From Octopus vulgaris (Eukaryota), in the NCBI GenBank assembly GCA_951406725.2, contig OX597825.1:40424001-40488000 (forward strand): 64,000 nucleotides of DNA, given 5' to 3'. The position numbers and the translations under genes were made by a program. The notes under the pieces were generated by a model, which did not search any database, had not been told where the DNA came from, and saw only the letters and a list, made by a program, of their open reading frames with translations. Shown one piece after another: positions 24,944 to 27,900 of the stretch (its first letter is position 1; each line of letters starts with the position of its first letter).

Positions 24944-27900
24944 ATTAACAATTAAGGAACGGCCATAATAGGCCATTCACCCACTAGAAATAACAGCCAA
25001 AGCTTCTACCGCAAATAAAGATTAATTCCGTAAACAGGAGAAAATTAAAAAAACATTTACCCTGTTATTTCTTGTACGGTATACCGTTTCATCTGCTGTT
25101 TAATGGTAAACTAACCTGATTAAATTAAATCAAGCCAATCTTCCATAAGCCCTCAGATTCTTCAGCAAGAAATAGCTCAAGTCGGAACAGATATTTACAC
25201 GAGGCATACCCAATCCTGCCAAGGCAATATCTGACCTAAAATTTTCAAATCGTCGCACTCGCGCCAAATTTATCGGCAGCAAATAAATCGTCGATTCCAT
25301 TACGGAATTAACCAAAAAATTCATAATTAATCAATATAGGGTGGCAAGGAAAATTTTGTAGAATTTTTTTGCCACCAGCGGCCCAGTGGGAAAAAATTAA
25401 ATAGTCATAGACCATTTTTAAGTTCAACATTAACAATTAAGGAACGGCCATAATAGGCCATTCACCCACTAGAAATAACAGCCAAAGCTTCTACCGCAAA
25501 TAAAGATTAATTCCGTAAACAGGAGAAAATTAAAAAAACATTTACCCTGTTATTTCTTGTACGGTATACCGTTTCATCTGCTGTTTAATGGTAAACTAAC
25601 CTGATTAAATTAAATCAAGCCAATCTTCCATAAGCCCTCAGATTCTTCAGCAAGAAATAGCTCAAGTCGGAACAGATATTTACACGAGGCATACCCAATC
25701 CTGCCAAGGCAATATCTGACTTAAAATTTTCAAATCGTCGCACTCGCGCCAAATTTATCGGCAGCAAATAAATCGTCGATTCCATTACGGAATTAACCAA
25801 AAAATTCATAATTAATCAATATAGGGTGGCAAGGAAAATTTTGTAGAATTTTTTTGCCACCAGCGGCCCAGTGGGAAAAAATTAAATAGTCATAGACCAT
25901 TTTTAAGTTCAACATTAACAATTAAGGAACGGCCATAATAGGCCATTCACCCACTAGAAATAACAGCCAAAGCTTCTACCGCAAATAAAGATTAATTCCG
26001 TAAACAGGAGAAAATTAAAAAAACATTTACCCTGTTATTTCTTGTACGGTATACCGTTTCATCTGCTGTTTAATGGTAAACTAACCTGATTAAATTAAAT
26101 CAAGCCAATCTTCCATAAGCCCTCAGATTCTTCAGCAAGAAATAGCTCAAGTCGGAACAGATATTTACACGAGGCATACCCAATCCTGCCAAGGCAATAT
26201 CTGACCTAAAATTTTCAAATCGTCGCACTCGCGCCAAATTTATCGGCAGCAAATAAATCGTCGATTCCATTACGGAATTAACCAAAAAATTCATAATTAA
26301 TCAATATAGGGTGGCAAGGAAAATTTTGTAGAATTTTTTTGCCACCAGCGGCCCAGTGGGAAAAAATTAAATAGTCATAGACCATTTTTAAGTTCAACAT
26401 TAACAATTAAGGAACGGCCATAATAGGCCATTCACCCACTAGAAATAACAGCCAAAGCTTCTACCGCAAATAAAGATTAATTCCGTAAACAGGAGAAAAT
26501 TAAAAAAACATTTACCCTGTTATTTCTTGTACGGTATACCGTTTCATCTGCTGTTTAATGGTAAACTAACCTGATTAAATTAAATCAAGCCAATCTTCCA
26601 TAAGCCCTCAGATTCTTCAGCAAGAAATAGCTCAAGTCGGAACAGATATTTACACGAGGCATACCCAATCCTGCCAAGGCAATATATGACCTAAAATTTT
26701 CAAATCGTCGCACTCGCGCCAAATTTATCGGCAGCAAATAAAACGTCGATTCCATTACGGAATTAACCAAAAAAATCATAATTAATCAATATAGGGTGGC
26801 AAGGAAAATTTTGTAGAATTTTTTTGCCACCAGCGGCCAGTGGGAAAAAATTAAATAGTCATAGACCATTTTTAAGTTCAAATTAACAATTAAGGAACGG
26901 CCATAATAGGCCATTCACCCACTAGAAATAACAGCCAAAGATTCTACCGCAAATAAAGATTAATTCCGTAAACAGGAGAAAATTAAAAAAACATTTACCC
27001 TGTTATTTCTTGTACGGTATACCGTTTCATCTGCTGTTTAATGGTAAACTAACCTGATTAAATTAAATCAAGCCAATCTTCCATAAGCCCTCAGATTCTT
27101 CAGCAAGAAATAGCTCAAGTCGGAACAGATATTTACACGAGGCATACCCAATCCTGCCAAGGCAATATCTGACCTAAAATTTTCAAATCGTCGCACTCGC
27201 GCCAAATTTATCGGCAGCAAATAATCGTCAGATATTGCCTTGGCAGGATTGGGTATGCCTCGTGTAAATATCTGTTCCGACTTGAGCTATTTCTTGCTGA
27301 AGAATCTGAGGGCTTATGGAAGATTGGCTTGATTTAATTTAATCAGGTTAGTTTACCATTAAACAGCAGATGAAACGGTATACCGTACAAGAAATAACAG
27401 GGTAAATGTTTTTTTAATTTTCTCCTGTTTACGGAATTAATCTTTATTTGCGGTAGAAGCTTTGGCTGTTATTTCTAGTGGGTGAATGGCCTATTATGGC
27501 CGTTCCTTAATTGTTAATGTTGAACTTAAAAATGGTCTATGACTATTTAATTTTTTCCCACTGGGGCTGGTGGCAAAAAAATTCTACAAAATTTTCCTTG
27601 CCACCCTATATTGATTAATTATGAATTTTTTGGTTAATTCCGTAATGGAATCGACGATTTATTTGCTGCCGATAAATTTGGCGCGAGTGCGACGATTTGA
27701 AAATTTTAGGTCAGATATTGCCTTGGCAGGATTGGGTATGCCTCGTGTAAATATCTGTTCCGACTTGAGCTATTTCTTGCTGAAGAATCTGAGGGCTTAT
27801 GGAAGATTGGCTTGATTTAATTTAATCAGGTTAGTTTACCATTAAACAGCAGATGAAACGGTATACCGTACAAGAAATAACAGGGTAAATGTTTTTTTAT

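Follow-up and report, generated by a model that had tools for sequence, protein, structure and literature searches.

A type I hammerhead with a long domain II and a predicted internal-loop pseudoknot in an octopus retrozyme

The window analysed here, a 64,000-nucleotide stretch of the Octopus vulgaris genome, contains an insertion built from two tandem arrays of a 485-bp unit (Table 1). The two arms are inverted relative to each other, with (TA)n at both outer ends: the left arm (24944..27229) terminates on (TA)n 131 nt past the cleavage site and the right arm (27227..32020) 238 nt past it. The unit is a non-coding tandem repeat with a GC content of 36% and one type I hammerhead each, and among the open reading frames of the window none of at least 120 aa lies wholly inside the 485-bp arrays. 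A structure-aware scan finds the hammerhead intact in 14 of the 15 copies in the window; nine in the right arm are intact and one carries an A9-to-C change (30721). By its tandem, low-GC, dispersed units the element is an animal non-LTR retrozyme, a known class. Pattern searches of the 2.8-Gb genome returned 223 and 1,769 matches on many contigs, with 0 and 4 in the respective controls, and 99 of 100 among the pattern matches listed belong to this family. The 485-bp retrozyme has about 2,000 genomic copies.

Table 1. Coordinates of the retrozyme insertion, the parts of the hammerhead at 27780 and related elements in the window
Feature	Position	Strand	Remarks
Retrozyme insertion, left arm	24944..27229	-	4.7 units of 485 bp; 5 intact hammerheads
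Retrozyme insertion, right arm	27227..32020	+	9.8 units; 10 hammerheads
Outer extension of helix I (predicted)	27764..27767	+	Pairs with 27881-27884; leaves 27768-27770 in internal loop
Pseudoknot, helix-I-side strand (predicted)	27767..27771 (core 27768-27771)	+	Predicted from covariation
Helix I, 5' strand	27771..27779	+	9 bp; two-sided changes in 5 of the 8 pairs counted
Catalytic core C3-A9	27780..27786	+	N7 alone varies among 17 family representatives
Basal helix II, 5' strand (A10.1 = 27787)	27787..27791	+	Pairs with 27850-27854; two-sided changes in 3 of 5
Domain II internal loop, 5' side	27792..27798	+	27794-27798 is the predicted pseudoknot partner
Apical insertion	27799..27842	+	4 bp, 2x2 loop and 13-bp G-U-rich hairpin with A/U loop
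Internal loop, 3' side, A-rich	27843..27849	+	Candidate A-minor strand
Core G12-A15.1	27855..27858	+	Invariant
Self-complementary helix III	27858..27869	+	Monomer: 4 bp and tetraloop; dimer: 12 bp
H17 and helix I 3' strand	27870..27879	+	Predicted cleavage after A27870, GUA triplet
Homologous sister retrozyme, truncated copy	34327..34525	+	40-nt domain II; family unit 444-454 bp
Second sister retrozyme, decayed copy	34588..34830	-	42-nt domain II; family unit 470 bp
Broken autonomous-type PLE	59651..62008	-	RT and GIY-YIG-like frames; 55-nt domain II hammerhead at 59779

The copy at 27780 has every position of the type I core (C3 U4 G5 A6 N7 G8 A9, G12 A13 A14 A15.1, U16.1 and H17) and, judging from the predicted fold and two-sided changes, three helices around it, with helix I open-ended. 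The initial annotation had placed CUGAAGA (27780-27786) and GAAA (27855-27858) 68 nt apart, with a helix II that opens on an A-U pair and a helix III that is a 12-nt perfect palindrome. All of these hold, helix II being 5 bp long from A27787-U27854 and the palindrome occupying 27858-27869. The insert had also been read as one long hairpin, and this must be revised: 5 bp are followed by a 7x7 internal loop, 4 bp, a 2x2 loop and a 13-bp hairpin. An alternative in which AAUCU pairs with the nearer AGAUU has a predicted probability of 0 (-23.5 vs -35.9 kcal/mol). The region folds at -39 kcal/mol (z = -5.3, none of 200 shuffles being as good), with pair probabilities of 0.92-1.0 in helix II; helix I is often predicted to be open in longer contexts (0.05-0.53).

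Scanning the entire window with Rfam (E <= 1) gave 144 hits, nearly all of them microsatellite noise and none to a hammerhead family, as would be expected if two short core motifs merely happened to flank an unrelated hairpin in a satellite repeat. Such a coincidence is scarcely credible, given the folding z-score, the near-zero pattern controls and compensatory changes in three helices, and the covariation refutes it. That covariation comes from 64 distinct variants obtained from fetched loci, of which 51 were aligned together with one further copy (L117) to give 52; the other 13 were left out because domain II had indels, the flanks were chimeric or truncated, or the sequence was a near-duplicate. 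Across the 52 variants, 94.8% of helix cells are paired, against 28-46% in slid controls, and 12 pairs show two-sided changes, a number reached by one of 500 shuffles (mean 7.7). Helix III contributes one such pair of its four. An earlier alignment, of 22 variants, agrees with these results for the helices.

The apical hairpin behaves differently from the rest of the unit. It is 99% paired, none of its 17 pairs shows a two-sided change, and its diversity among 17 representatives (pi 0.034) is about half that elsewhere (0.074-0.102). The sequence itself is under constraint, most likely through a role in protein binding or RNA folding. G-U pairs were also considered as possible fixed A-to-I edits; the 17 representatives have 46 A/G and 39 C/T columns, unpolarised. 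A spliceosomal intron in or after domain II, suggested by GTAA motifs, was set aside, as its acceptor is not conserved; contigs of presumed-RNA runs contain no joint that would mark a spliced intron in the 485-bp unit.

The conserved hairpin would suit a model in which the fold is maintained as a module for binding or folding by a Penelope protein, or as a protein-aided cleaver, with free self-cleavage negligible and not selected. The hammerhead of an Anolis PLE is described as cleaving only with protein, and its core mutants as inserting normally in vitro (PMC11167929, available part), and in the octopus family copies with weak 10.1/11.1 pairs have amplified. Set against this model is the core, which is invariant save N7 in 17 representatives down to 83% identity, with A or C at H17, an invariance that is partly built in because most copies were found with patterns requiring the core. 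We regard the protein-module model as improbable.

The fold may also include a pseudoknot. Next to helix I on its 5' side, bases 27768-27771 can pair with 27794-27797, which lie in domain II, in its internal loop. Within the family, 98.6% of the cells of this putative pseudoknot are paired in the 52 variants. One of its pairs is G-C in 42 variants, A-U in six, G-U in two and something else in two; the change from G-C to A-U falls in the subfamily of the window and was probably a single evolutionary event. The first and last base of the helix-I-side pseudoknot strand compete with helix I and its extension. A different pseudoknot, in which the 3' side of the internal loop would pair with a complement downstream, was discarded, as the variants do not covary.

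The pairing recurs in a clade made up of families in which the cleavage site is followed by a GGTAAATGTTTT-like motif. At least four pairs (range 4-7) can form between the two strands in 17 of 19 clade representatives, L306 and L307 being the two without; L309 and L314 have only three pairs when judged by eye, and the copies at 34338 and 34781 in the window carry mismatches. In those 17 representatives the first strand begins 6-8 nt ahead of C3 and the second 4-7 nt past A9, and the types of pairs differ between families (AGGCU/GGCCU, AGGUG/CACCU and AGGUU/AACCU). Own partners score 12.5 against 10.5 for swapped ones in the 19 representatives (0 of 20,000 permutations) and 12.6 against 10.8 in 11 family representatives (p = 0.004), values that are too optimistic because the representatives are related, and that were obtained with test windows and a clade chosen after the pairing had been seen in two families. 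No such pairing was found in 16 representatives of other long-domain-II families (5.8 own vs 6.7 swapped). As a genome-wide pattern the pseudoknot is too loose for counting (54,323 matches, 15,933 in the control); of 20 places drawn from these, at least four held full clade hammerheads. The 3' strand of the internal loop is A-rich in all 11 family representatives, which may recall the A-minor strand of a solved pseudoknot hammerhead (PMC11300833, as far as that source was available).

It is possible instead that the hammerhead is active, or weakly so, with no tertiary contact at all, the complementarity being an inherited GG/CC and activity deriving from the helix III dimer alone. Swapped partners do still score 10.5-10.8, PLE hammerheads have been described as dimeric and as having no recognisable tertiary contacts (PMC4209133, available part), and the energies of helix III given below favour a duplex between units, with hairpins that are weak in the commoner subfamilies. 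Own partners nevertheless outscore swapped ones, the pair type differs between families at three positions, the spacing is fixed, and a dimer and a pseudoknot are compatible with each other. A hammerhead that lacks the contact seems unlikely.

The reading that we prefer, and hold to be fairly probable, is that each 485-bp retrozyme unit carries a type I hammerhead, predicted to be self-cleaving, in which the internal-loop pseudoknot keeps helix I and helix II in contact. The 68-nt domain II would consist of a short basal helix and then an internal loop that likely forms 3-5 bp with the strand just 5' of helix I; this would supply the helix I-helix II contact, and the long hairpin would hang beyond it. 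Cleavage after A27870 would turn tandem transcripts into RNAs of unit length, which may be circularised like those of other animal retrozymes; helix III could pair between neighbouring units, and a Penelope-like RT/endonuclease would start copying the RNA at two internal sites about 105 nt from each other. Counting against self-cleavage, only one of nine predicted Xenopus retrozymes is reported to have cleaved in vitro (bioRxiv 2026.07.22.740005, available part).

The A10.1-U11.1 closing pair, singled out at first as a defining feature, does not serve as one. It is A-U in 31 of the 52 variants, G-U in two and mismatched (A.C or U.U) in 19, and amplified subfamilies differ in it; in an older subfamily nearly every copy seen has A.C, and sister families have A-U, A.A, C.A, G-U or G-C. 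Mismatches at 10.1/11.1, U.U included, are reported for hammerheads in the available part of PMC3088659, and that of PMC7229834 reports that helix II of the axolotl retrozyme has a U.U mismatch at its base. Because the pair varies here and U.U has been published, A-U is an allowed state and not a signature. From the sequences, the 10.1/11.1 pair is loosely constrained in this retrozyme clade, and palindromic helix III and A-U closure are ordinary for this class of element.

Helix III was proposed to form either within a monomer or between units, and folding predicts both. In the 27780 copy alone the hairpin has a probability of 0.89-0.96, and for a two-unit RNA the prediction is almost wholly the 12-bp duplex between units (about 1.0), at -18.8 kcal/mol for the duplex vs -2.9 kcal/mol for the hairpin. 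Commoner subfamilies have hairpins of -0.2 to 0 and duplexes of -14.5 to -17.5 kcal/mol. Self-complementarity survives a change of the loop from UAUA to UGCA, the loop pair being G-C in 44 and A-U in eight of the 52 variants, and the palindromes are 8-12 nt across the clade. Use of a dimer by this hammerhead is therefore plausible on the modelled energies; it is not new, being a known behaviour of PLE and amphibian hammerheads.

Long domains II are widespread in the genome. In the pattern class with an 8-nt palindromic helix III and a GUC triplet, for which alone the counts are valid, the two halves of the core are separated by 40-70 nt in 6,478 motifs (38 in the control) and by 9-39 nt in 536 (6 in the control). 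A third pattern, with 30-60 nt, matches 1,483 motifs (control 234), again a count valid for its own class. Long domains also occur in several non-coding tandem families and in a PLE family with an upstream endonuclease frame (59779, L068 and L083). Of the idea that a long helix II is a lineage trait that may link the retrozyme to local PLEs, the trait itself is genome-wide and the link is half right: the elements at 34338 and 34781 are related to the retrozyme (see below), and the PLE at 59779 shows no homology to it. Direct homology of domain II with that of other families was looked for and not shown (z -0.7 to 2.2). Over its whole length, the 583-bp unit of family B aligns weakly with the 485-bp unit (z 5.6), and a 594-bp relative gives a z of 2.3.

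A retrozyme group with units of 583-594 bp (L071, L087-L090 and L131-L160) accounts for 1,150 pattern matches, with 0 in the control. It has a domain II of 52-70 nt, mostly closed by G10.1-C11.1, a bulged helix I and no pseudoknot, and its ends lie near +190 and +295. At 33375-33425 in the window, with an inverted copy near 33150-33200, a short PLE-type hammerhead with a 15-nt domain II sits in a small inverted (TA)n insertion; short and long forms of the hammerhead thus coexist. A retrozyme-like array at 51807-52930, flanked by (TA)n tracts, comprises 3.1 copies of a 360-bp unit. Its hammerheads, with motifs near 51999, 52359 and 52719, have C at position 4 and a short domain II, and the array lacks homology to the 485-bp unit (z 0.4).

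Two neighbouring hammerheads had been assigned to PLEs. For that at 34333, domain II is 40 nt long (at 34338 on the + strand) and the assignment is not upheld, since the element belongs to a non-coding tandem family and is no autonomous PLE. This element and that at 34781 are homologous to the 485-bp unit (z 12 and 17) and are therefore sister retrozymes. The hammerhead at 59700 does belong to a PLE with a long domain II (55 nt at 59779 on the - strand), and it is closed by G-C. That PLE has no sequence homology to the retrozyme (z 0.6) and no pseudoknot, so that sharing a long helix II is not enough to connect the retrozyme with it.

A young, intact autonomous PLE was found elsewhere in the genome (L358, G000:C11:13698000-13707900; also L359-L363 and L365), as 2,590-bp tandems with a 717-aa frame. 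In its RWK motif and its shortness the frame matches the description of the Hydra clade, and it has a weak C-terminal GIY-YIG match; the hammerhead, with a domain II of 31 nt, carries C at position 4, and there are two ends, at +39 and +106. It shows no homology to the 485-bp unit (z -1.4), and its end spacings, like those of the 59779 PLE, differ from those of the retrozyme. A homologous pLTR was not found among flanking RT/EN matches or with an RT query, including 40 RT-selected loci, which are a small part of the 8,672 RT candidates.

The retrozyme insertions yielded 83 distinct (TA)n junctions; counted from the cleavage site, 41 of these fall at +120-140 and another 34 at +222-250. Insertions of the family are mostly inverted pairs with one end of each type. 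With an inverted second arm, two 3' ends and a microsatellite target, they carry a two-site Penelope footprint. The concentration of 75 of the 83 junctions in two windows is as expected from two internal RT start sites; a PLE with two such sites is described in PMC11167929, and inverted PLE insertions with a tail at one end in PMC8557442 (both available in part). The pattern agrees with animal retrozymes being non-autonomous derivatives of PLEs, as has been proposed. The footprint published for PLEs (same sources) likewise has an inverted, 5'-truncated second arm, a microsatellite target and two 3' ends; it differs in a tail of 30-40 bp, whereas the ends are about 105 nt apart here and no protein is encoded.

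Compared with the animal non-LTR retrozymes described in the available parts of PMC7229834 and bioRxiv 10.64898/2026.07.22.740005, the octopus element is alike in its units, which are non-coding, low in GC, arranged in tandem and a few hundred bases long with a single type I hammerhead each, in having thousands of dispersed arrays and in a proposed dependence on PLEs. In those elements helix II is typically 4-5 bp with a small loop, whereas here there is a 68-nt domain II with an internal loop and a predicted pseudoknot; inverted-pair arrays and two fixed ends on (TA)n also set the 485-bp retrozyme apart. The PLE minimal or dimeric hammerheads (PMC4209133 and PMC6765202, available parts) share a palindromic helix III, dimer potential, a larger-than-usual helix II and a position near the 3' end of TA-targeted insertions. 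Theirs is a helix II of 6-8 bp with a conserved G10.1-C11.1 and a minimal helix III, whereas the hammerhead at 27780 has a helix III of 4 bp and a tetraloop, a 68-nt domain II and a variable 10.1/11.1.

Closest in architecture are the pseudoknotted hammerheads, in which, in the available parts of PMC3088659 and PMC11300833, a Watson-Crick stem I-stem II pseudoknot replaces loop-loop contacts, as predicted here; weak or mismatched 10.1/11.1 pairs are tolerated and an A-rich strand lies beside the pseudoknot, as in the octopus family. According to PMC3088659 (available part), about 40% of hammerheads use this pseudoknot and its disruption lowers activity 20- to over 100-fold. With at least four predicted pairs linking the stem I side to the stem II loop, the clade would have the pairing that marks this group. 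The pseudoknotted hammerheads described there, mainly microbial, draw on a short stem II, through its terminal loop or open tail; the animal retrozymes described here would instead use an internal-loop strand, with a hairpin of 25-45 nt continuing beyond it.

Literature searches returned no retrozyme with a 40-70 nt domain II or with a stem I-stem II pseudoknot, and no hammerhead whose pseudoknot is formed by an internal loop beneath a long hairpin, although the supplement of PMC7229834, the figures of PMC3088659 and Lunse et al. may hold such cases. The 'long helix II' of PMC13725137 is one of 6-8 bp, and highly repetitive type I motifs were excluded from the stem-length analysis in PMC3088659 (both available in part). 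The predicted internal-loop pseudoknot is likely what is new, and it would give the long domain II a testable mechanism. Naiad (PMC8557442, available part) includes eight elements with hammerhead half-cores 35-50 nt apart that are not called hammerheads there, and by analogy these may be long-armed motifs like those described here.

It seems, on balance, that in a retrozyme clade of thousands of copies and at least 10 families an internal-loop pseudoknot may free a cargo site of 25-45 nt, and that long-armed hammerheads, those of Naiad included, have perhaps been widely missed because such motifs escape Rfam models and standard descriptors. If so, these would be natural hammerheads that keep an activating tertiary contact despite a long insertion, as is sought for aptamer-controlled ribozymes. 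Ribozyme censuses would also undercount: in one pattern class long-armed forms outnumber short ones by about 12 to 1, and the window has no Rfam match to a hammerhead. The family offers natural variants (A-U, G-U, A.C and U.U, with strong or weak helix III) for comparing monomer and dimer cleavage, and the same variants would serve to probe the disputed role of hammerheads in Penelope transposition.

Related sequences and other elements were observed in passing. The 485-bp family is also present in organisms B (run X16) and C (run X19), whose contigs align to 28660-28900. In two loose ends of X19, possibly from different molecules, the sequences of helices I, II and III are altered with pairing kept, and the perfect 12-nt palindrome is a different one. 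Contigs of the presumed-RNA runs X4 and X1 over 28660-29330 differ mostly by A>G and T>C changes; the T>C changes of X4 at 28703, 28705, 28758 and 28824 are absent from the much deeper runs X15 and X16. These look like A-to-I editing on both strands, in samples that differ and whose RNA status is a guess. At 39400-43400, on the - strand of the window, translations examined by eye contain broken LTR-retrotransposon-like frames resembling gag, protease, RT, RNase H and integrase.
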